From positions 115,818,001 to 115,882,000 of the forward strand of contig NC_086097.1 of assembly GCF_963921235.1 (NCBI RefSeq): 64,000 bases of DNA, in the 5' to 3' direction. The notes below the pieces were generated by a model. The model saw nothing but the letters and a program-made list of their open reading frames with translations, ran no database searches and had not been told where the DNA came from. The translations under genes were made by a program, and so were the position numbers. The DNA is from Mobula hypostoma. Its lineage: Eukaryota. This document shows positions 5,581 to 28,699 of this stretch, piece by piece (the first letter of the stretch is position 1; each line of letters starts with the position of its first letter).

Positions 5581-6084
5581 GTACCTCTTCCTAGAGATGC
5601 TGCCTGGCCTGCTGCGCTCACCAGCAATTTTGATGTGTGTTGCATATAATCATCTTTGTCTACTCTCAAGTCTGTAGGCTTGTACTCCTTTTACTTCCTC
5701 AAAACATTCCCACTTGCAGGCTAACATCTTTTTGTCTTACAGACTTCCATTTAATTTAGCCTATATCAAGGAAGAATCATATTTTACTCTTTCCTTACTG
5801 GCAGAGCATGGAACATGCTTTCTTTATCTGTTCCTAATCATTCTATAAATTGCATTTCATTAAGACCTGTTTCTGCTTCTCTACAAACTTAACAAGAACA
5901 TCTTTCATCGGTTCTTATACCAATACAGTCTAAGTATACCTTTCACAGCTTTAAAATTCTTTTCACTTTGAATCACCTATTCAAATTCTTCCAGGAGCAT
6001 TAGAGGATTTTTGTAAATAATGAGACGAGCATGCACGTACATCTGAATGGGGTTCTTGGAAGCCCCTTCATTATAACGCAGGCT

Positions 6085-7210
6085 TAAAAATAGAACTACA
6101 ACTGGAGGTTAAGGGTGAAAGGTGAAAAGTTTAAGAGGAACATGAGGGGAATCTTCTTTACTCAGAGGATTGTGAGAGTGTGGAATGAGTTGCCAGCACA
6201 AGTGGTGTATGTGAGCTCGATTTCAATGTTTAAGAGAAATTTGGATAGTTACATGGATGGTAGGGGTATGGAGGGGAATGGTCTTGGTACATGTCGATGG
6301 AAGTAATGTGACGAGAATACACATAAAATTAAGATGTTTGCTGGCCTGAGTTAGCATCAGTGACATCAGCAAGTGGTCTGCCACCTGCCCTCAGGAGAAG
6401 GAGAGATAAGGAACAATGGAGCAGCGTCTGGAGATGTGTAATGAAGGGACGGGGGAGAGAGAGCTGTCTGGAGCGGCTCCCCCCTTTGAACCTTGAACTG
6501 TTTGAAGTGATGGACAGGCGATACCCCAGCAGGGGGATAAAAAGCGACCGGTTCGCTAAGGCAGGAGACACACGCCACCCGAGGTAACGAGACCCTGGAA
6601 GCGGTACGCTTCTCACGAGTCGGTGGGAAGTACCAGACAACGGCCAGGGTGGAAAGGTACGATCAGCGGGAACCCGGTGTGTGTCCGCCCTTGCCTGGGT
6701 GCCGGGTTCACTGCAGAGGATCGACCGCATCTGGAGGAGGGGTCACAGTCGGTGACCTCAGGTGACATCACCAAGGACCTGCCCAAAATCACCGGTCTGT
6801 GAGTGAAGCTGTGTCTGAATGATCAGTTGTTCCTGTTCTCTCTCTCTCTCCCCCCACGTTGTCCATCGCCATGGCAACGATTACTGTGAACTGAACTACT
6901 AAACTGGACTGAACTTTGAGTCACTTTGAAATTTGGTCATTTACCCCTAGACAACGATAGAGTTTGATTGATGCTGTTATCTTAATTCTGTGCACATGTG
7001 TGTTTATCATCACTGAACTGTTGCATTTATTATCCTTTTGATTACTGTGTTGCTTGTTTCTTTAATAAAACTTTCTTAGTTCTAGTACTCCAGACTCCAA
7101 CTGAGTGATCCATTTCTGCTGGTTTGGCAACCCAGTTACGGGGTACGTAACAGTAAGTTCAACATAGACTATTTGGGCCAAAGGGCCTGTTTCTGTAATG
7201 TACTTTTCTA
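6085..7210 (+). mobile_element. CR1 3' fragment interrupted by a solo LTR
   Basis: KGEKFKRNMRGIFFTQRIVRVWNELP (ORF2 C-terminus); the 3' UTR resumes after 7156 (gggccaaagggcctgtttctgt). Confidence 0.8.
6307..7152 (+). mobile_element. Solo LTR (846 bp, Gypsy-like)
   Basis: TGTGACG...CGTAACA termini, 4-bp TSD gtaa (6303-6306, 7153-7156), AATAAA at 7064-7069, CpG-rich relative to the flanks. Confidence 0.9.
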
Positions 7211-7235
7211 TGAATCTCTAGGACTGAAAAGTTGA

Positions 7236-7718
7236 AAAGAATCGCCAGGAATGAAAGGGTTACTGAATGAGGAACGTCTGGCAGCTCTTGGGCTGTATTC
7301 CCTGGAGTTCAGCAGAATGTGGGGGGATCTCGTACAAACATTCCGAATGTTAAGAGGCCTGAACAGATTAGATATGTCAAAGTTATTTCCCATGGTAGGG
7401 GAGTCTAGGACAAGAGGGTACGACTTCAGGATTGAAGGACATCCATTTAGAATTGAGATGCGGAGAAATTACGTTAGTCAGAGGGTGGAAAATCTGTGGA
7501 ATTTGTTGCCACGAGCAGCTGTGGAGGCCAAATTATTGGCTGCATTTAAGGCAGAGATCTTAATTAGGTTCTTGATTAGTCAGGGCATCAAAGGGTATGG
7601 GGTGAAAGCAGAGGAATGGGGATGATTGGAAGAAATGGACCAACCCATGATTGAATGGCAGAGCAGACTTGATGGGCCAAATGGCCTAATTCTGCTGTTC
7701 TATCTTATGGTGTTATGG
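7236..7718 (+). mobile_element. CR1 LINE 3' fragment
   Basis: EERLAALGLYSLEFSRMWGDL..., homologous to the C-terminus of the 23361-26393 ORF2, followed by 3' UTR and a (ttatgg)-like tail. Confidence 0.88.
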
Positions 7719-8839: not shown

Positions 8840-10065
8840 TTTCCAGTTATTGTTCTCTGGGTGGGTGTTGAGATGTGTTCTGGTTAGAGTGTGCGATTAG
8901 GGTTTGGTTATACTATGATTGGAAGCTGTGCCATTTTTCTCTTCTTCCAGTTCTGAGGAATCTCTGAGGAATATTAATTTGTTTCAAGCACAGAATTTTA
9001 TCATTGATTGGATCATAAGAAGACTGGTAGCAAGCTGGATTTCCATTACCTTAGAAACTTGACCCTAAGTACTTGTTTTTTCACTTTTATCTCCAAAATA
9101 AAGTAGGCAGAATAGGTGGTTTTAAACTGCATTATCTCCAATGTTTCATCAATCTTGACAAGAAAAAAGAAACAGAAAATGCTGGACTCTGCAAATGAAG
9201 GGTAACTATGGGGAGGGAAACAGATAAGGTTTTATGTCAAAGACGAATTGGAACAGAAGAGCAGAGCACATCTGTGAAGAGACAGATAAAAAAGTGTGAT
9301 TACCTGAAATTGTTAAGGGTTGCAATTTGCCCAGGTGGGAGATAAGGTGCTATATCTTGAGCTTACATCAGGCATCTCTGGAGCAATACAGAAGAGTGAA
9401 GGCAGAGACATCAGGTTGAGAGTGAGGTAAAGAGATAATGCAACAAGCAGCTCAAAGCTTAGGGCTACCTTGCAGACTGTTCATTCTGCAAAATGGCCAC
9501 CCAATAGGCTCTTGATTTTTCAATTTAAGGGGAGACCATTTTTTGCGAAACAAATGCAAAACAAATACAACTACTGGACTGAAAGAAGTCCAAGTTAATT
9601 TGAGCTTCACTTAGAATAGGTAAAGGCAAAAGAGCAGGTGCTGCATTTCATAAGCTGCATGAGGAAAGTGCAACAGAGTTCAAAGTTCAAAGTAAATTTA
9701 ATTATCAAAGTACATATATGTCACTACATAAAATCCTGAGATTTATTTTCTTGTAAGCATTCTCAACAAATCTATTGAATAGTAACTATAACAGAATAAT
9801 TGAAAGACCTCCCAACTAGGGTGTTCAAACAGAGTGCAGAAGACAACAAACCGTTCAAATCCAAATACCAAAAAAAAGTAATAAATACTGAGAACATGAG
9901 ATGAAGAGTCCTTGAAAGTGACTTCATTGCTTCTGGGATCATTTCAGAGATGGAGCAAGTTAAGATAAGTGAACTTATCCCCTTTTGTTCAAGAGCCTGA
10001 AGTTTGATGAGGAATAGCTGCTCCTGAACCTGATGGTGTGAGTCCTGCGTCTCTTGTAATTTCAT

Positions 10066-17200: not shown

Positions 17201-18669
17201 CGAACTCCATCTCTTGATTCAGGACTTAACATACTTCTGCGTAAATCCAATTTGTGCTGTTGCCAGGCAACACGTTTTTCATCAAATGAATCCAGAATTG
17301 AATAACCACATCATGTTTTTGATGGATGTTTAAGGTGCAGAATGTTACTCAGCAGAAAGGACTCAACTTAACATCTCCAAAGTAAAAGGAAAATATTTGC
17401 GCCTTTCTTTTTTGGAATCGATTAGTTGCAAAGGTGAGGTACTGGTGCCGTAAAACCAGTCGATCCTGGCAGATGTGGCTTATCAGCCATGCTTGGCAGG
17501 TCATCGAGGAGAAGGAAAACTCTGATCTCAAACCTCTGCTGCTCTACAGCTATACTTACTCATGGAGAAGGCTTCTGGATTAAACCCTGAGGAGAAATCT
17601 GGAGTCGAAGACTCTACGTTGAGTTCAACACTGACTGGCAACTCCCGCGATGCCACTGCTGCCAAACTCTATGAGTCCTTGCCATTCCTTTGGATTCATC
17701 AGCCAATAGGAGAACGGAAATCTGAGGCTGAGAAGATCTTGATGTTGAACAGCCCTCAGCACTGAAGCTTTGATGGTGGTTGTCATGTGATCAATACTTC
17801 CAATAGATGACAATCTGGATACTCATTGGGAAATAAAACAGAATGAAAATATTTGTGGGTTGGGTTGCCAGCGGAGAGTTGGAAGTGGGTGCATCATAAC
17901 ATTAAAAACCTTTGATCGGGATGGCAGAGACAAAGGCTTGCATGACAGAGATGCTAGAGAATGAAGGAAATGAGACTACATGGAAGAGGACTTTAGGAGA
18001 GAGTTTGGTCATGGTGTTTCCTGGCGAGCAGAGGTGATGTGATTTCTATACTGAAGAGGAATCAGAATGGTTTTCTGCTGGCTCCACTAGTCAATCAGAA
18101 ACAATAGAGCAGACAGGTTTTGACTATGAAATGCTACTGAAGGATCCAATGTGGGCAAAGAGGTGCAGGAACTCTTAAATAAAGTGTAGAATGCAATAGT
18201 ACTGCCCAAGCAGAGATACCTACTGTTTCTGCATCAGGAGCTAACTAAGAAGTTCTCCAGGAAGCAGTCCTTATTGGGGAATGTGGACTTTAATGAGTTC
18301 TTCAACATGAAGAAAAGTGTATCTGACTAGCATCAATGATTGAAGAGGTGCTTGGTGAAGGATCAGTGTCATCTAGCTGGTCTGTGTATTGGGAGTCTGG
18401 GAAACCTCATAAGTTACGGGTTGTTCTCGAGCTTCCCTGCTTGTTACATACTGAACATAATTCAGAATACATTTACTATCTAAGTTTGTATATATATAAA
18501 ACAACATTGAGATTCATCGCCTTGCAGGTAGCCACAAAACAAGACACCCCCAAAAAATTTAAAATTCCAACAAACACCCAATATGCAGAGAGAGAACAAA
18601 AAACAAACTATGCAAACAATAGAAGCAAGCAAACAGCTTTCAGAACGAAAGTGAATCCATAGACTCAGA

Positions 18670-18860
18670 GGCCCACAGGCTCAGCCTCGGTTCATGATAC
18701 AGAGGGGCAAAACGTTGTGGAGCCCACAGTTATGAAGCCCAGAGCAGCTGGAGCAGGCCCACAGGTTCAGCCTCGGCTCATCACACAATGGAGCAAAACA
18801 TCATGGAGTCCGCAGACACAAAGCCCAGAGCAGCCAGAGTAGGCCTACAGCCTCATCTTC
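18670..18860. repeat. 86-bp tandem repeat, about 2.2 copies
   Basis: ggcc(c/t)acag at 18670, 18756 and 18842; aagcccagagcagc in each full unit. Confidence 0.85.
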
Positions 18861-20465: not shown

Positions 20466-20816
20466 CCTTATGAATGAATTTTGTCATGCATACTGTCTTC
20501 CTTATTTGTGAATCCAGATCCACAAAAGTGGTTGACTGTTCCCTTCCCTTACAAACACGGAGGTGGACGATAAGGACACAGAACAGTACAGTACAGTACA
20601 AGCCCTTTGGCTAGTAGCATGAGCAAATACATTTTAACTAGTTTTAAAAATTTGCTGGACCACTTAGTTTTTTAAGTTCAAGTTTATTGTTACAGGCATG
20701 CACTCGTAAGGCATAACCGCCTTCATAATTAGTTTTTTTTTGCAGCAGCGACACAGTACATTACACATATTACTATTGGCTGATCCTGATTCTGATTCTA
20801 GTTTATCATTGTCACA

Positions 20817-21530
20817 TTCTTCTTTTATGTTACTGCTAAGGCTAATAAATATGGCTTCTTTGTTATGTTTGAATAAAATGGCTTCTTTGTTATGTTAACT
20901 GTTGAGAAAGTGCTTCTCACTAGCAGCTTGTTTGGTTATAATAACTGATAACGAGAATTGTATTCACTTGCTAACCAATTGGGATAGATAGTATTCTTTC
21001 TTGTGTGTCTGTAAGCTATTGTTTTTGTGGGTTTTGAGGGGAAGGCGCAGTGGGGACAGAGAGAGGAGACGCGATGTTGTAAGCTGGGTGACAGAATGGA
21101 CCCCGAGTGGGAGTCTGAGACTCAGCGTCTTCGGCGAGGAGAGGAGATGAGGACGGACTCGTGTGGAGCATCTTGTCAACCACCATGGTTGGTCCTAGGC
21201 GGCGGGTCGAGGAGGTCGGAGGGGATCGAATGGTGGAAAGAAGACTCCGTTCATTGAGCTCCAACGGTTGTGCACGAAGTGGTTGAACTTTGATAAGTTT
21301 GGCGCCTTTTACTTTCCCTTTTATATTGTATCTCTATTAATTCCATAGTACCAGTAAGATTTATAAAGTGTAGTCATTTAATCGCGTATGGTGTACTGTC
21401 TGTTATTTGGCGTGGTGGGGTACATCACACAGCATCCACACAAACTGATTACCGAGTTTGGCAGGGCCAAAGGCTGCTCCCCCTAGATGAAAGCGAGCTG
21501 AGCAAGCCTGAGGCTTACCAGGGGGCTACA
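20817..21530 (+). repeat. 5' LTR (first ~9 bp missing)
   Basis: Collinear with 27965-28685; ends ggctACA; lacks the tgtagcggt start. Confidence 0.93.
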
Positions 21531-21533
21531 TTG

Positions 21534-21553
21534 TGGGGTTACTCATCCGGAAT
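21534..21553 (+). promoter_or_regulatory. Degenerate primer-binding site, tRNA-Pro-like
   Basis: tggggttactcatccggaat versus the canonical tRNA-Pro PBS tgggggctcgtccgggat; lies just after the LTR. Confidence 0.65.
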
Positions 21554-22360
21554 ATGGATTTTTGTAGGAAGCTGTGTGATCGCCCTCTTTAAGTTATGCA
21601 TGCTGCAGGGACGGAAAGCTGGTGTGCTGGTTATTACTGCATGTGTGTTGGGTGGGGTGGCTGTTGGTACCCCGGAGGTCTTTGTTCGAGATCAGACTAG
21701 CGCTGACGAGTTGGTGGTGGGACTGTCAGTGTCTATTGGTGCCCCAGGTGAGGCGGGACCATGGGCTGTCCGTACTGTTAGGAGAGAGAAGAAAGAGTGG
21801 TCTGATTTGGAGGTAGTGTCTGCGAATAAATGTTCCAGCTATGGCACGCTCCGCCTGGTTTTTGGGATATTGTCCACCCCTAAAGGGGCGGAGGCATACG
21901 AGACGTGGGTGGCGCGGATCTCTCAGTTGTTAGATGACTGGCAGAGGTCGGTTGAGGGAGAGCGACAGGGATTCGTTGAAAGTTTGAGTAAGTGGGCTGG
22001 TGATGGTGTTAGAACTGTCAGGGTCAATTACCCGTAGTGACAGGTGCCAGTTATCTGAAAGTGGGGGAAAATGCGTTTGGTTTGATTGGAAGTAAAATGA
22101 AGCACCTGGGGGGCTTTCCATACCTGTGTCAGGAAATTGGGAAAAAGCTTTCAGTGTATCTTCTCTGGCCAAGGGGGGGGGGGGCAGTTAAATTGCTTGC
22201 AGTGCCAGGGGGATCATTTCAGGGGATCAGTCCCTCCCTCAGTTGTTCAGTTGATCAGAGAGGTGTTGGGAAACTTAGTGGAGGCCCAGTGTGGGAACGG
22301 CTTGGGGTCTCTGGGGTAGCACGTTCCCAGCAATGTACCAAGAAACTTCCAACATGAACA
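21554..22360 (+). pseudogene. PNMA/Ma-like gag remnant
   Basis: LRLVFGILSTPKGAEAYETWV...WQRSVEGERQGFVESL resembles the PNMA capsid motif LR.FSG....GEE.FE.WL...W..SE.EKRRRL.ESL. Confidence 0.8.
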
Positions 22361-22399
22361 GACGCAATTCCTGAAGGCTTAGAGGGACCCCGCCCCCGT

Positions 22400-22830
22400 G
22401 TGTCATTACGGATAGATGGAAGCTATGCTAAAGCGATCCTCGACACCGGGGCACAGGTCAAGTTGTTGTACAGTTCGTTTTACAACCGGTTTCTGAAGCA
22501 TTTACCCTTGACAACATTAAGGGCACTGGAGATTTGGGTTACAAGTGCCAGTGATTATCCAGAAGACGATTATAGGTCAGTAAAACTGGAGTTCTCGAAG
22601 GCCAATGTGTGGGTGTCAGAGGGCCGTGTCGTTAGTGCTGATGTTTCCAGACCCTGGTGCGTTGGGCAGTGTTTCGATTCTGGAGGGGACCAACACCCTG
22701 CTGACAAGGAGGCACACGGGGGCCTGCCAAGAGGAGGCAAGTGAGAGCTGTTTGGGAGCATTGTCTGTGCACCCAGTGTTTCGAGCTGCTTATGAGGACA
22801 TGTGTAGCAGCATTGGGCCAGTACCGAATT
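22400..22830 (+). pseudogene. Retropepsin protease remnant
   Basis: [14 protein letters not shown] (DTG at 22442); frameshifted SILEGTN motif downstream. Confidence 0.88.
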
Positions 22831-22959
22831 AAAACAAGAGCCGATTGTGGTACGGCCCAGAGGAAGTATCTGAGGTTGAGACCCTCTTAGTAGATGCTCT
22901 GAAATACCACGAGGGAGGAAAGTTGACTGCTGAAGACACCTCGGAGAGAGTGGTCGCGG

Positions 22960-23264
22960 TGACTGGACCCTGTAGCCGTGGAAGACGTAGGCGGTGTGTG
23001 TGTGGATTATAGGACTCTGAACAGGCGCTCTGTCATTGACCAGAATACGGCCCTGAGGGCAGAAGACGCAATGGTCTGTCTGAATGGTGCGACGTGATTT
23101 AATGTGCAGGATCTGAGGAGTGAATGTTGCCAGATCCCGATGAGTGAGGCCGACAAGGAGAAGACAGACGTTATAGGTCCCCTAGGATTCTTCCGATCCG
23201 AAAAGATGCCACAGGGCATATCCGAAACCCCTGAAACCTTCCCGTGGGGGACAAGGAAGACCAT
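22960..23264 (+). pseudogene. Gypsy RT remnant, N-terminal part
   Basis: [28 protein letters not shown]...PLGFF...[12 protein letters not shown]. Confidence 0.88.
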
Positions 23265-23360
23265 AGAAACATAAAAACATAGAAAATAGGTGCAGGAGTA
23301 GGCCATTCGGCCCTTCGAGCCTGCACCGCCATTTATTATGATCATGGCTGATCATCCAAC

Positions 23361-26300
23361 TCAGAACCCCGCCCCAGCCTTCCCTCCATACCCCCTGCTC
23401 CCCCTAGCCACAAGGGCCATATCTAACTCCCTCTTATATATAGCCAGTGAACTGGCCTCAACTGTTTCCTGTGGCAGAGAATTACACAGATTCACCACTC
23501 TCTGTGTGAAGAAGTTTTTCCTAATCTCGCTCCTAAAAGGCTTCCCCTTTATCCTCAACCTGTGACCCCTTGTTCTGGACTTCCCCAACATCGGGAACAA
23601 TCTTCCTGCATCTAGCCTGTCCAATCCCTTTAGGATTTTATACGTTTCAATCAGATCCCCCCTCAATCTTCTAAATTCCAACGAGTACAAGCCCAGTTCA
23701 TCCAGTCTTTCTTCATATGAAAGTCCTGCCATCCCAGGAATCAATCTGGTGAACCTTCTTTGTACTCCCTCTATGGCAAGGATGTCTTTCCTCAGATTAG
23801 GGGACCAAAACTGCACACAATACTCCAGGTGTGATCTCACCAAGGCCTTGTACAACTGCAGTAGTACCTCCCTGCTCCTGTACTTGAATCCTCTCGCTAT
23901 AAATGCCAGCATACCATTCGCCTTTTTCACCGCCTGCTGTACCTGCATGCCCACTTTCAATGACTGGTGTATAATGACACCCAGGTCTCGTTGCACCTCC
24001 CCTTTTCCTAATTGGCCACCATTCAGATAATAATTTGTTTTCCTATTTTTGCCACCAAAGTGGATAACTTCACATTTATCCACATTAAATTGCATCTGCC
24101 ATGAATTTGCCCACTCACCCAACCTATCCAAGTCACTCTGCATCCTCTTAGCATCCTCCTCACAGCTAACACTGCCACCCAGCTTCGTGTCATCCGCAAA
24201 CTTGGAGATGCTGCATTTAATTCCCTCATCCAAGTCATTAATATATATTGTAAACAACTGGGGTCCCAGCACTGAGCCTTGCGGTACCCCACTAGTCACC
24301 GCCTGCCACTCTGAAAAGGTCCCGTTTATTCCCACTCTTTGCTTCCTGTCTGCTAACCAATTCTCCATCCACATCAATACCTTACCCCCAATACCGTGTG
24401 CTTTAAATTTGCACACTAATCTCCTGTGTGGGACCTTGTCAAAAGCCTTTTGAAAATCCAAATATACTACATCCACTGGTTCTCCCCTATCCACTCTACT
24501 GCTTACATTCTCAAAAAATTCTATGGGACTCGTCAGACATGATTTTCCTTTCACAAATCCATGCTGACTTTGTCCGATGATTTCACTGCTTTCCAAATGT
24601 GCTGTTAGCACATCTTTGATAACTGACTCCAGCAATTTCCCCACCACCGACGATAGGCTAACCGGTCTATAATTCCCCGGTTTCTCTCTCCCTCCTTTTT
24701 TAAAAAGTGGGGTTACATTAGCCACCCTCCAATCCTCAGGAACTAGTCCAGAATCTAACGAGTTTTGGAAAATTATCACTAATGCATCCACTATTTCTTG
24801 GGCTACTTCCTTAAGCACTCTAGGATGCAGACCATCTGGCCCTGAGGATTTATCTGCCTTCAATCCCTTCAATTTACCTAACACCACTTCACTACTAACA
24901 AGTATTTCGCTCAGTTCCTCCATCTCACTGGACCCTCTGTCCCCTACTATTTCTGGAAGATTATTTACATCCTCCTTAGTGAAGACAGAACCAAAGTAAT
25001 TATTCAATTGGTCTGCCATGTCCTTGCTCCCCATAATCAATTCACCTGTTTCTGTCTGTAGGGGACCTACATTTGTCTTTACCAGTCTTTTCCTTTTTAC
25101 ATATCTATAAAAGCTTTTACAATCCGTTTTTATGTTCCCTGCCAGTTTTCTCTCATAATCTTTTTTCCCCTTCCTAATTAAGCCCTTTGTCCTCCTCTGC
25201 TGAACTCTGAATTTCTCCCAGTCCTCAGGTGAGCCACTTTCTCTGGCTAATTTGCATGCTTCTTCTTTGGAATTGATACTATCCCTAATTTCTCTTGTCA
25301 GCCATGGGTGCACTACCTTCCTTGATTTATTCTTTTGCCAAACTGGGATGAACAATTGTTGTAGATCATCCATGCAACCTTTAAATGCTTGCCATTGCAT
25401 ATCCACCGTCAATCCTTTAAGTGTCATTTGCCAGTCTATCTTAGCTAATTCACGTCTCATACCTTCAAAGTTGCCCCTCTTTAAGTTCAGAACCTTTGTT
25501 TCTGAATTAACTATGTCACCCTCCATCTTAATGAAGAATTCCACCATATTATGGTCACTCTTACCCAAGGGGCCTCTCACGACAAGATTGCTAACTAACC
25601 CTTCCTCATTGCTCAAAATCCAGTCCAGAATAGCCTGCTCTCTAGTTGGTTCCTCGACATGTTGGTTCAAAAAACCATCCCGCATACATTCCAAGAAATC
25701 CTCTTCCTCAGTACCTTTACCAATTTGGTTCACCCAATCTACATGTAGATTGAAGTCACCCATTATAACTGCTGTTCCTTTATTGCACACATTTCTAATT
25801 TCCTGTTTAATACCATCTCCGACCTCACTACTACTGTTAGGTGGCCTGTACACAACTCCCACCATCGTCTTCTGCCCCTTAGTGTTACGCAGCTCTACCC
25901 ATATCGATTCCACATCTTCCCGGCTTATGTCCTTCCTTTCTATTGCGTTAATCTCTTCTTTAACCAGCAACGCCACCCTACCTCCCCTTCCTTCATGTCT
26001 ATCCCTCCTGAATATTGAATATCCCTGAACGTTGAGCTCCCATCCCTGGTCACCCTGGAGCCATGTCTCTGTGATCCCAACTATATCATAATCATTAATA
26101 ACAATCTGCACTTTCAATTCATCCACCTTATTACGAATGCTCCTTGCATTGACACACAAAGCCTTCAGGCGCTCTTTTACAACTCTCTTAGCCCTTATAC
26201 AATTATGTTGAAAAGTGGCCCTTTTTAATGCTTGCCCTGGATTTGTCGGCCTGCCACTTTTACTCTTCTCCTTTGTACTTTTTGCTTCTACCCTCACTTT

Positions 26301-26393
26301 ACACCCCTCTGTCTCTCTGCACTGGTTCCCATCCCCCTGTTGTGAACTAACCTCCTCACGCCTAGCCTCTTTAATTTGATTCCCACCCCCCAA
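23361..26393 (-). CDS. CR1 ORF2: APE endonuclease + reverse transcriptase, uninterrupted
   Basis: 1010 codons; [44 protein letters not shown] and FADD all present. True start codon uncertain. Confidence 0.96.
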   Translation of the reverse strand: MGGGNQIKEARREEVSSQQGDGNQCRETEGCKVRVEAKSTKEKSKSGRPTNPGQALKRATFQHNCIRAKRVVKERLKALCVNARSIRNKVDELKVQIVINDYDIVGITETWLQGDQGWELNVQGYSIFRRDRHEGRGGRVALLVKEEINAIERKDISREDVESIWVELRNTKGQKTMVGVVYRPPNSSSEVGDGIKQEIRNVCNKGTAVIMGDFNLHVDWVNQIGKGTEEEDFLECMRDGFLNQHVEEPTREQAILDWILSNEEGLVSNLVVRGPLGKSDHNMVEFFIKMEGDIVNSETKVLNLKRGNFEGMRRELAKIDWQMTLKGLTVDMQWQAFKGCMDDLQQLFIPVWQKNKSRKVVHPWLTREIRDSINSKEEACKLARESGSPEDWEKFRVQQRRTKGLIRKGKKDYERKLAGNIKTDCKSFYRYVKRKRLVKTNVGPLQTETGELIMGSKDMADQLNNYFGSVFTKEDVNNLPEIVGDRGSSEMEELSEILVSSEVVLGKLKGLKADKSSGPDGLHPRVLKEVAQEIVDALVIIFQNSLDSGLVPEDWRVANVTPLFKKGGREKPGNYRPVSLSSVVGKLLESVIKDVLTAHLESSEIIGQSQHGFVKGKSCLTSPIEFFENVSSRVDRGEPVDVVYLDFQKAFDKVPHRRLVCKFKAHGIGGKVLMWMENWLADRKQRVGINGTFSEWQAVTSGVPQGSVLGPQLFTIYINDLDEGIKCSISKFADDTKLGGSVSCEEDAKRMQSDLDRLGEWANSWQMQFNVDKCEVIHFGGKNRKTNYYLNGGQLGKGEVQRDLGVIIHQSLKVGMQVQQAVKKANGMLAFIARGFKYRSREVLLQLYKALVRSHLEYCVQFWSPNLRKDILAIEGVQRRFTRLIPGMAGLSYEERLDELGLYSLEFRRLRGDLIETYKILKGLDRLDAGRLFPMLGKSRTRGHRLRIKGKPFRSEIRKNFFTQRVVNLCNSLPQETVEASSLAIYKRELDMALVARGSRGYGGKAGAGF

Positions 26394-26398
26394 CCATT

Positions 26399-26833
26399 CT
26401 AGTTTAAAGTCACCTCAGTAGCCCCCGCTAATCTCCCTGCCAGGATATTGGTGCCCCTAGGATTCAAGTGTAACCCGTCCTTTTTGTACAGGTCACACCT
26501 GCACCAATAGAGGTCCCAATGATCCAAAAACTTGAATCCCTGCCCCCTGCTCCAATCCCTCAGCCACGCATTTATCCTCCACCTCATCGCATTCCTACTC
26601 TCACTGTCGCGTGGCACAGGCAGTAATCCCGAGATTACTACCTTTGCGGTCCTTTTTCTCAACTCCCTTCCTAGCTCCCTATATTCTTCTTTCAGGACCT
26701 CATCCCTTTTCCTACCTATGTCATTGGTACCTATATGTACCACCACCTCTGGCTCCTCACCCTCCCACTTCAGGATATCTTGGACACGATCAGAAATATC
26801 CCGGACCCTGGCACCAGGGAGGAAAACTACCAT
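26399..26833 (-). pseudogene. CR1 ORF1 C-terminal SGNH esterase domain (5'-truncated)
   Basis: PGAR, VVHIGTND and DGLHLN motifs typical of CR1 ORF1 esterases. Confidence 0.9.
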
Positions 26834-26844
26834 CCGGAGATACC

Positions 26845-27005
26845 ATGGGAGATGTGGAGCTGTTTGGAGTTTTGGCGTATGTGGATGATCGCCTAGGGTT
26901 TGGATTCACCTTGGGGGACTATAATGCGAGGTGAGTGCCGGAGCCCGGGCAACAAAGAATTAACAAAGTAAAACTTTGGATGAGCGCCAGGTCTGGAGAA
27001 GGATG
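26845..27005 (+). pseudogene. Gypsy RT remnant, catalytic part
   Basis: MGDVELFGVLAYVDD (YVDD 26878-26889), continuing the RT broken at 23264. Confidence 0.88.
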
Positions 27006-27013
27006 CAGATCCT

Positions 27014-27460
27014 GAGTGGCTGAGAGAGGAGATTTGCATCGCTGAACTGAATGCTCAGAAATGCAGGCTGGAGACTGAGTGCTGCAATTTTAGGGCAACC
27101 ATTGAAGAATTGGAGTCCACGCTCATCAAAGTGGGGACAAGGAAATGGAATTCCAAGTCAAAACTGTGGTCATTTACTGATAAATTAATCTAGAGAGACG
27201 AAACAATGACCAACCTTCGAAAGGACCAGCAGAAACTCATGAAATCGATCCAGAACAGATTGGAAGAAGCTGGTGGTGTAATTGCATCCCCGATGGAGAT
27301 GAACACGAAGCATGAGTCTGAACTACTGCGACTGCGGGTGGAGGCAGAGGAGTCAAAGAAGAAGCTGATGTCTTGATTGCAGGAGGTTGAAGAGGCTGCA
27401 GAGGCAGCCCAGGCTAAGTACTTCAATTTGGAGAAAATCACACAGCAGCTACCAATCGAG
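27014..27460 (+). pseudogene. Captured intronless class II myosin heavy chain rod fragments (MYH16-like)
   Basis: One frame reads AELNAQKCRLETEC...IEELESTLIKV...RDETMTNLRK / NRLEEAGGVIASPMEMNTKHESELLRLR / [31 protein letters not shown], matching three separate MYH rod motifs. Two in-frame stops. Confidence 0.85.
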
Positions 27461-27954
27461 GAAATGGGGAAGAATACGGATTCGAAGGATGACGTGCTGA
27501 ATGTGTGGTACATGCTGCCTTACGCTAACTTCCCCTTGTTGGATGAAAAGACTTTTGTCCCTTCTCCCACTGAATCAGGGGTAGGGAGAAGGACTATTCG
27601 TGCATAGCTTGGGTTACTGCAGGACCCTGAATGAAAAGAAGCGGGGCCCGGACACAGGACAGGGGGCTCCGAGTTGCAGTGGGGGCATGAGTAAGAGATT
27701 GAAAGAGGATTTGGCAAGCAGATCCGAGGTATCCCCAGTAGTGTCTGAGCCTGAAGGGTTTAGGTGAGGGGGTATGGAGGTCTCGGAGGATTAGGAAACT
27801 CCCAGATAGGTTGGCCTATGTAGCACTTGAGGAACCGGGCATAAGGTCACTCTTTGGGGAGCAATGTCACTGTTTGTTCCTAGATTGGGTTTTTGTGTCT
27901 GCAGGAAGGGTTGGCGAGTTATTTGGAAGTCATGAGGACATGACTAAATTTGGT

Positions 27955-27964
27955 GGGGGAAGAG
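27955..27964 (+). promoter_or_regulatory. Polypurine tract
   Basis: gggggaagag immediately before the TG of the 3' LTR. Confidence 0.85.
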
Positions 27965-28685
27965 TGTAGCGGTTTCTTCTTTTATGTTACTGCTAAGGCT
28001 AATAAAATGGCTTCTTTGTTATGTGAGAATAAAATGGCTTCTTTATTATGTTAACTGCTGAGAAAGTGCCTCTCTCTTGCAGGTTGTTTGGGTTATAATT
28101 ATTGATAATGAGAATTCTATTCATTTGTTAACCAATTGGGATAGATGTTATCCTTTCTTGTGTGTCTGTAAGCTATTGTTTTTGTGGGCTTTGAGGGGAT
28201 GGTGCGATGGGGACAAAGAGAGGAGACATGATGCTGCAAGCTGGGTTACGGAACGGACCCCGAGCGGGCATCTGAGGCAGAGGGTTTTCGGCGAGGAGAG
28301 AAGACGAGGACAGACTCGTGTGGAGCGTCAGGTTGACCACCGTGGTTGATCCCAGGTGTGGGTCGAGGAGGTCGGAGGGGATCGAATAGTGGAAAGAAAA
28401 CTCCGTTAATTGAGCTCCAATGGTTGTGCACGAAGTAGTTGAACTCTGATAAGTTTGGCACCTTTTGCTTTCCCTTTATATTGTATCTCTATTAATTACA
28501 TTATTCCAGTAAGATTTATAAAGTGTAATCATTTAATCGCAAATGGTTTACTGTCTGTTATTTAGCACGGTGGGGTACATCATACAACATCTACACAAAC
28601 TGATTACCCAGTTTGGTGGGGCCGAAGGCTGCTCCCCTCAAGACAAAAGTGAGTTGAGCGAGCCTGAGGCTTACCGGGAGCTACA
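27965..28685 (+). repeat. 3' LTR
   Basis: TGTAGC...GCTACA inverted termini; homologous to 20817-21530. Confidence 0.94.
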
Positions 28686-28699
28686 CACCTACTAAGAGG

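Follow-up and report, generated by a model that had tools for sequence, protein, structure and literature searches.

The 64,000-nucleotide stretch of Mobula hypostoma DNA analysed here (the window) carries, at positions 20811-28686, one decayed non-autonomous Ty3/Gypsy LTR element. With high confidence, this element is an old copy in which the integrase region was swapped for a spliced cDNA of a MYH16-like gene located on contig C68. The insert is collinear with exons b-h and k-l of this parent gene, all introns are gone, and it lies in frame, preceded by the end of RNase H and followed by the last ~100-140 residues of pol. The comparison of copies shows that the chimera, LTRs included, was multiplied to about a thousand sites or more and that internal deletions, located at short direct repeats, divided it into subfamilies. 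The window copy itself is an old, broken member of this family, with a LINE insertion and two stop codons.

Structure of the element

The element consists of an LTR, gag, protease (PR), a partial reverse transcriptase (RT) with the YVDD motif, the myosin insert, a C-terminal remnant of pol, a polypurine tract and a second LTR, in this order (Table 1). The two LTRs, both in direct orientation and with TG..CA ends (start TGT, finish ACA), are ~87% identical (over 688 nt of repeat families D1-D4 and D7). The protease motif DTGA was found inside the frame 22358-22744. In another copy (L003), the segment equivalent to window positions 21532-23264 gave a Pfam match to PNMA (E 9e-8), and the RT part could be aligned by tblastn with residues 816-1009 of a stingray gag-pol protein, P0161 (E 6e-43). 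According to Pfam, P0161 comprises PNMA-gag, zf-CCHC, RT (863-1022), RNase H (1109-1238) and integrase (1401-1565), and the gag, protease and RT of the element are related to this protein, the pol of which has the order PR-RT-RNaseH-IN. The identification of the sequence as a Gypsy retrotransposon, made in an earlier note from the sequence alone, is thus borne out by the paired LTRs that bound the element and by the matches of its gag, protease and RT to P0161.

The remnant of the pol C-terminus contains an acidic-VWY motif (27476-27523) and, in a different frame, the motif RSRRIRKLPDRLAY (27778-27819). In copies L040 and L041 this tail shows 73-75% nucleotide identity to an integrase-bearing comparator (L051). 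Neither RNase H nor integrase is present between YVDD and RSRRIRKLPDRLAY in the window copy, as had been claimed. No tRNA-complementary primer-binding site was recognised on inspection of the sequence downstream of 21531. The 4-nt target-site duplication was checked in three copies and was exact in L005, had one mismatch in L003 and was absent at the window copy; at the same check, the LTR start of L049 and the 5' end of L008 were looked for and not found. Two tandem 86-nt units, 78% alike, are located upstream of the element (18669-18840).

The element is split by a CR1/L2-type LINE, which was overlooked in the earlier note; the YVDD region described there is present, and, given the position of the LINE, it represents the part of RT immediately to the right of it. 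The LINE encodes an uninterrupted ORF2 of 1017 aa (endonuclease and RT) and an ORF1 with an esterase domain (Pfam: RVT_1 1.6e-32, Exo_endo_phos 4.9e-11, Lipase_GDSL_2 2e-15). It is flanked by an imperfect target duplication of ~12 nt, carries a short repeat tail at its 3' end, and is not found at this site in any of the seven other copies of the element compared.

Table 1. Location of the element, its parts and the nested LINE in the window, and of the parent exons on contig C68
Feature	Position	Strand	Basis or content
5' LTR	20811-21531	+	direct repeat with 27966-28686; ends set by alignment to other copies
Decayed gag (PNMA-like), protease, N-terminal RT part	21532-23264	+	tblastn with stingray gag-pol P0161; ORF listing
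CR1/L2-type LINE splitting the element	23265-26841	-	Pfam domains; missing from other copies at the site
RT remainder: YVDD (26878-26889), then palm/thumb start	26842-27019	+	tblastn, P0161 residues 959-1013
Myosin piece 1	27020-27267	+	parent exon b from ~nt 97, exon c, first 14 nt of exon d; TAG 27191-27193
Myosin piece 2	27257-27355	+	3' part of parent exon g and first ~66 nt of exon h
Myosin piece 3	27353-27451	+	last two codons of parent exon k and part of exon l; TGA 27374-27376
Pol C-terminus remnant	27452-27952	+	weak tblastn to C-terminal 20-140 residues of fish Gypsy pol, E 0.003-0.08
Polypurine tract	27953-27965	+	purine run abutting the 3' LTR; kept in window, L003, L008
3' LTR	27966-28686	+	direct repeat with 20811-21531; ends from copy alignments
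Parent exon b	C68:14524969-14525196		placed by search alone; homology 14524967-14525196
Parent exon c	C68:14564082-186		ag/gt borders
Parent exon d	C68:14583580-666		ag/gt borders
Parent exon e	C68:14612358-503		ag/gt borders
Parent exon f	C68:14615500-590		ag/gt borders
Parent exon f2	C68:14651248-304		ag/gt borders
Parent exon g	C68:14663723-809		ag/gt borders
Parent exon h	C68: from 14666491		ag/gt borders
Parent exon k	C68: end near 14683079		gt donor visible

The myosin insert of the window copy

Positions 26984-27607 form a single reading frame interrupted by two stops (Table 1), and its translation yields the peptides that had been quoted for it. The myosin frame proper (27020-27451) includes both stops and is composed of three pieces of spliced host mRNA. 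In comparison with the spliced exons of the parent, piece 1 is 88.8% identical over 27161-27267 (107 nt, E 2e-37) and piece 2 is 87.7% identical over 27257-27337 (81 nt, E 6e-26), the two alignments overlapping by 11 identical nucleotides (27257-27267). Copies of the window type begin at nt 97-101 of exon b. The assignment of piece 3 is based on the end of parent exon k in locus L061 and on a PDB match to residues 1370-1422 of MYH7, exon l being compared with canonical MYH16 only.

Against the MYH7 and MYH4 rods of the PDB, three collinear matches were obtained (residues ~929-1010, 1132-1180 and 1370-1422, E 1e-6 to 2e-3), and together with the ~88% nucleotide identity to parent exons they place the likeness to myosin far beyond chance. 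Several searches returned little. Pfam Myosin_tail_1 gave no match at E<=1 on the window fragment, on which only weak generic coiled-coil matches were seen, and no myosin family was found by Pfam on the open frame of L003. A word-indexed search of the decayed window fragment against longer proteins gave nothing, and a less deleted copy was needed for this purpose. When the open frame was compared by tblastn with the myosin loci that Pfam had detected first, most of which are pseudogenes or non-sarcomeric genes, weak coiled-coil matches were all that resulted.

Affinity to MYH16

The protein P0037, translated from the less deleted copy L040, matched full-length myosins with E 6e-48, and 785 proteins were retrieved with it at E<=1e-5. 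Of its first 38 matches listed, 31 were named myosin-16 or MYH16 (155-180 bits), and the remaining seven were unnamed or otherwise named, two of them at ranks 1 and 4 (top match 182 bits); myosin-15/6/7 and fast types came next (141-155 bits). Phylogenetic trees separated the element sequences together with seven MYH16 rows from the other sarcomeric rows (14 in one tree and 9 in another) with support 100. The element sequences were placed as sister to the sampled MYH16 clade, not within it, a position in which long-branch effects are possible. A clade of the element with canonical host MYH16 was rejected (p-AU 0.02, in a tree from which the C68 parent itself was left out), which fits a different parent paralog. 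With the Pfam family Myosin_tail_1 (cut-off 38.1 bits), P0037 scored 23.7 bits and parent exon h alone 33.7 bits; since the myosin pieces are short and divergent, they are classed as derived from this family and not as its members.

The attribution to MYH16 in the earlier note is therefore correct as to kind, the insert being MYH16-like by its best matches, by the tree and by intron positions; its source is not canonical MYH16 but the C68 paralog, to the exons of which the window copy is 88% identical.

The parent gene on contig C68

Judging by its exons, the parent, located at G000:C68 ~14.525-14.683 Mb, is a MYH16-like paralog of divergent sequence, in which giant introns reach ~39 kb and exons b-k extend over 158 kb or more (loci L052-L063). 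Exon b of the element is 91% identical to that of the parent, and the longer members of the family are 89-96% identical to it over most exons. In copy L041, identities to the seven parent exons c-h, which are spread over more than 100 kb, are 96, 95, 93, 80, 89, 91 and 91%, and the alignment ranges abut without a gap at six junctions (c|d, d|e, e|f, f|f2, f2|g and g|h). Crossing of the b|c junction is implied as well, as the homology to exon b stops exactly at the b|c border. Because the alignments cross six exon junctions of the parent, the insert is derived from host mRNA, and mapping onto host exon junctions has thus upheld the claim of an intronless, mRNA-derived sequence.

When spliced in silico, exons c-h of the parent are open over 273 aa. 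Contigs from public runs link exon g directly to exon h, skipping 2,681 nt with GT..AG borders, in four of four runs from two studies, none of the listed runs being recorded as RNA. These contigs show no mismatch and extend into the part of exon h that is missing from the element, indicating that the parent gene is transcribed and spliced. The lack of contig cover in unique parts of introns was set aside as evidence. In one run (X2), loose contig ends at L053:6775-6810 and 9490-9551 coincide with element-type junctions (exon d-g and exon h-k/l), which hints that element copies are also present in the RNA-like runs.

The small exon f2 of the parent recurs in canonical MYH16 (C36:112.713-112.738 Mb), as does the split between g and h, and exons c-h of the two genes are equal in length, whereas in the genes of the fast-type cluster the corresponding region is one exon. 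The parent extends through rod exons absent from the element, namely the rest of h and then j and k. A search for motor and neck exons gave 116 candidates, all of them scored, and none falls within the interval 14.0-14.7 Mb of C68; the parent may be a rod-only or 5'-altered myosin paralog. Canonical MYH16, the protein of which is ~45% identical to the insert, was also considered as the parent, which would imply a very old capture (pS 0.88, saturated); this candidate was dropped in view of the 88-96% identity of the C68 paralog over most exons. Long intronless Myosin_tail matches with several stops were also noticed elsewhere (C18:48745314-48746731, C50:30689110-30689772, C184:304888-305403 and C157:172388-172903); they resemble ordinary processed pseudogenes derived from different myosin genes and have no relation to the LTR family.

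The family of copies and its longer variants

A DNA search of the same assembly with positions 26990-27620 of the window gave 1,090 first-look candidates. All 40 candidates scored (window included) were 85-100% identical, and 37 of them cover the whole segment and so share the three-piece arrangement. The copy number of at least about a thousand is a lower bound, resting on these first-look candidates with 40 scored. Seven other copies were compared along the element. In five of them (L003, L005-L008) the alignment starts in RT and continues unbroken until the 3' LTR ends; L004 aligns over the same range with an internal gap, and L002 is rearranged and stops within the LTR at window position 28499. 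Six of the seven (L003-L008) also align upstream through gag-PR-RT. In L003 the myosin frame is open over 248 aa and is in frame with pol on either side. The possibility that a whole family spreads myosin fragments, raised in the earlier note, is confirmed by these numbers and by near-identical copies on other contigs, in which both the junctions and the LTRs are the same.

With a rod segment of a lungfish myosin as query, host myosin exons were retrieved along with thousands of intronless matches (4,139 candidates, 81 scored). Copies L039-L042 hold more of the rod than the window copy: L041 carries residues 888-1183 plus 1402-1433, and the rod match of L039 has 44% identity over 254 aa (E 5e-58). 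These long variants keep PR, RT and RNase H in order upstream of the myosin, up to an ADALSR motif. The motif ahead of the myosin had at one point been read as RT 'FLGH..S'; this reading was rejected, as the alignment with P0161 shows it to be the ADALSR end of RNase H. Relative to the integrase-bearing comparator L051, ~1.6 kb of pol (5692-7308) is swapped in L040 for ~0.8 kb of myosin. As RNase H is still present in the longer variants, only integrase was replaced originally. The proposal that myosin stands in place of both RNase H and integrase thus applies to integrase ancestrally, while RNase H was lost later, in the window subfamily. Comparison with the long variants shows that this subfamily subsequently lost the C-terminus of RT together with RNase H and, within the myosin part, ~97 nt from the start of exon b as well as most of exons d-g, and it is to these deletions that the three myosin pieces of the window are due. 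Divergence from the parent is 6-7.5% in the long variants, 9-12% in copies of the window type (11.7% in the window) and 17-18% in copies of the L043 type.

Junctions and internal deletions

The 5' junction was examined with a query extending 60 nt beyond exon b on each side, in which homology to the parent covers query positions 59-288, i.e. it starts 2 nt ahead of the predicted first base of exon b. The 60 nt upstream of exon b in the element align with pol, following the ADALSR motif. At this junction, which is also the exon start, pol (DEEWES) resembles exon b (EQEN) for ~5 codons. Splicing onto the acceptor of exon b is favoured as the origin of the 5' junction, a reading based on the endpoint of homology and on the length of the exon, which is the same in the C36 gene; a template switch at the microsimilarity is a less likely alternative.

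The 3' junction is placed within exon l by comparison with just the C36 gene, and the insert has neither a 3' UTR nor poly(A). Parts of one LTR element flank it: RNase H ends upstream of it, and the C-terminus of pol and the LTR follow downstream. Two deletions shaped the interior. The one that joins exon h to the final two codons of exon k is found in almost all variants and lies at a 12-nt near-repeat encoding ELEE; because the codon at the k|l splice junction is kept, it does not represent exon skipping. The other, from exon d to exon g, is restricted to the window subfamily and coincides with the 11-nt perfect repeat at 27257-27267.

Selection and open frames

Selection on the insert was looked for with dN/dS and codon-position counts with shifted-frame controls, which show none. 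In the window subfamily, dN/dS was 0.55 in frame versus 0.49 and 0.58 in the shifted frames, and differences by codon position were 0.091, 0.114 and 0.089. No third-position excess was seen within or between subfamilies, gag included. A small third-position excess relative to the parent fits the parent's own constrained evolution. As the codon-position tests show neutral decay, the myosin segment would be a neutral passenger of the element.

One observation is not predicted by pure neutrality, namely the long open frame of the L043 subfamily. Copy L043 (2111-4258, minus strand) has an open frame of 716 codons running from gag through myosin, with an altered protease (DPG) and an internally deleted RT, and L044 (1968-4163, minus strand) has the same fused frame with one stop. 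In the myosin part, to which this figure is limited, L043 and L044 have 67 common differences from the parent in ~485 nt (13.8%). When the L043 ORF was randomly substituted at 13.8%, a mean of 10.3 stops appeared and none of 4,000 trials was free of stops; the other two frames of this ORF contain 37 and 46 stops. It might be that the coiled coil is no mere passenger and that selection keeps the gag-PR-RT-myosin frame open in at least one subfamily, e.g. for multimerisation or for shielding the genomic RNA from nonsense-mediated decay, and a fused frame kept open in this way would help explain the success of the family. The persistence of the frame in L043 and L044 at this shared divergence speaks for this idea, as does the lack of a stop within the match in 43 of the 53 listed intronless matches at 32-37% identity. 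On the other hand, the common differences are evenly distributed over the codon positions (21, 23 and 23), comparison between subfamilies reveals a third-position excess nowhere, not even in gag, L043 was picked for having the longest open frame in the list, the value of 13.8% comes from the myosin part alone, and the subfamily of the window decays neutrally. We regard such selection as unlikely. A broader proposal, that a vertebrate Gypsy element took host exons by acceptor splicing in the manner of acutely transforming retroviruses and that one or more of the high-copy subfamilies actively maintain the fusion frame in an open state, is speculative to a similar degree; if true, the stolen coiled coil, or the long translatable frame, would give a defective element a replication edge over its helpers.

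Origin and mobilisation

The most satisfactory account of the family is capture of host mRNA by the element. A read-through or chimeric transcript of an element located upstream may have been spliced onto the acceptor of exon b, giving the 5' junction, and template switching in reverse transcription might have rejoined exon l to the 3' end of pol, giving the 3' junction. Capture would have proceeded as in retroviral oncogene transduction. Without integrase and mostly without a working RT, the family would have been mobilised in trans by autonomous relatives.

Candidates for this role are numerous. A search with the integrase segment gave 16,207 first-look candidates, and all 144 of those scored were 75-83% identical to P0161. 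The nearest integrase-bearing comparator examined, L051, has 69-77% DNA identity to the family, and only ~120 nt of the LTR match; in the 9 kb covered, one plus-strand ORF of at least 300 aa is listed (1065 aa), and no LTR pair was found. A tandem array with a period of ~84 nt and units 92-97% alike follows right after its pol tail (L051:7422-9001). The search for an autonomous relative, suggested in the earlier note, thus revealed abundant integrase-bearing relatives, the closest one examined being just 69-77% identical, but not a direct helper. The missing functions could come from such relatives.

Another route to an intronless insert would be a processed myosin pseudogene, made by a LINE, which landed by chance in a resident Gypsy copy and was then amplified with it. 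CR1/L2-type LINEs with open ORF2 were active enough to enter this very element, and several processed myosin pseudogenes exist elsewhere in the genome. Such a landing would nevertheless be hard to reconcile with the structure of the insert, which replaces ~1.6 kb of integrase and is not added to it, begins at an exon start, stops inside exon l without a 3' UTR or poly(A), is not flanked by a duplication and, in L003, is in frame with pol on both sides; we consider this route very unlikely. A transfer in the reverse direction, in which the coiled coil is a long-standing domain of the element and the C68 'gene' arose from a copy by domestication or exonisation, is scarcely credible: the absence of motor and neck exons in the C68 region mentioned above would agree with it, but the C68 introns are at canonical MYH16 positions (f2, g|h split) not shared by the fast-type genes, the gene continues into rod exons missing from the element and is spliced in RNA contigs, and the insert groups with vertebrate MYH16. 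Finally, two findings that the earlier note had named as overturning its view, namely coiled-coil likeness of a merely generic kind and the leftover of a local myosin gene with introns outside the LTR bounds, can safely be dismissed, since the weak generic Pfam matches on the window fragment stand against 88% nucleotide identity to specific host exons and many near-identical copies with the same junctions and the same LTRs on other contigs. Capture of spliced C68 mRNA by the element therefore remains the preferred explanation.

Consequences for annotation and significance

An exhaustive profile search retrieved 34 proteins at E<=1e-3, ten of which were looked up by name. Seven of the ten are short predicted proteins of Mobula hypostoma, Hypanus sabinus and Hemitrygon akajei, named 'myosin heavy chain, skeletal muscle-like', 'putative uncharacterized protein MYH16' or 'uncharacterized'. 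A Hypanus model named 'transmembrane protein 192 isoform X1' holds the RT, myosin and tail of the element. The models P0159, P0004, P0007 and P0011 (Hypanus and Mobula) come from the element and are probably annotation artefacts. The family accounts for short manta and stingray proteins automatically named 'myosin heavy chain-like' or 'MYH16', or merged into unrelated models.

In the accessible literature, no account of a myosin-carrying element in rays was found, and the ray-genome preprints make no mention of myosin in their main text. Nor was any literature found linking an LTR retrotransposon, myosin heavy chain and gene capture; the publications listed on MYH16 and retrotransposons were irrelevant by title and opening of the abstract. 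The family represents a clean animal case of gene transduction by an LTR retrotransposon, with a traceable living parent, mapped junctions and a deletion series, and it illustrates one way for coding sequence of the host to become dispersed across a vertebrate genome. The family would also lend itself to use as a dated series of markers for ray phylogeny and to the study of defective LTR elements competing with their helpers.

Comparison with known systems

In retroviral oncogene transduction, host sequence is acquired by read-through and splicing at the 5' side and by non-homologous RNA recombination at the 3' side. The ray family is similar in that a replication gene was replaced in frame by spliced exons, the 5' border being an exon border and the 3' border lying inside an exon, and in that the product is defective and needs a helper. 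It differs in that the carrier is an env-less endogenous Ty3/Gypsy element, the cargo is a neutrally evolving structural coiled coil in place of a growth-promoting gene, and the spread takes place in the germ line. LARDs and TRIMs consist of LTRs around a non-functional interior and are mobilised in trans by autonomous relatives, and the ray family likewise has LTRs around a non-functional interior and is probably mobilised in trans. Unlike in the ray family, the interiors of LARDs and TRIMs are not known to be host-gene cDNAs, and the ray family still shows its gag-PR-RT(-RNase H) ancestry.

The nearest counterparts are the LTR-mediated retrocopies described by Tan et al. (2016; PMC5131818), with which the ray element shares a partial intronless copy of host mRNA inside an LTR retrotransposon, discontinuous element flanks and the lack of poly(A). 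According to the accessible part of that study, such retrocopies, with microsimilarity at the fusion points and few secondary copies, occur in flies, mosquito, zebrafish, chicken and mammals; the short similarity suggests template switching, and the chimera is secondarily retroposed (PMC5131818). The same source (PMC5131818) mentions captured gene fragments in plants at low copy number, in maize Bs1 and rice LTR elements, Bs1 joining three genes, whereas the ray element has one parent gene. Copy numbers given there are also far lower, with only two retrocopies having more than one site and Bs1 having 1-5 copies (Tan et al. 2016, PMC5131818). In contrast to the retrocopies of that study, as far as its accessible part describes them, the ray family has at least about a thousand copies, is divided into subfamilies and has a 5' fusion that coincides with a probable splice acceptor, and its amplification is far above the handful of copies reported there (PMC5131818). 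Thus the kind of event, LTR-mediated retrocopying or transduction, is known, and its scale in a vertebrate is unusual; what is new is the true parent paralog with evidence of RNA splicing, the 5' junction at a probable exon acceptor, the deletion series and the neutrality tests.
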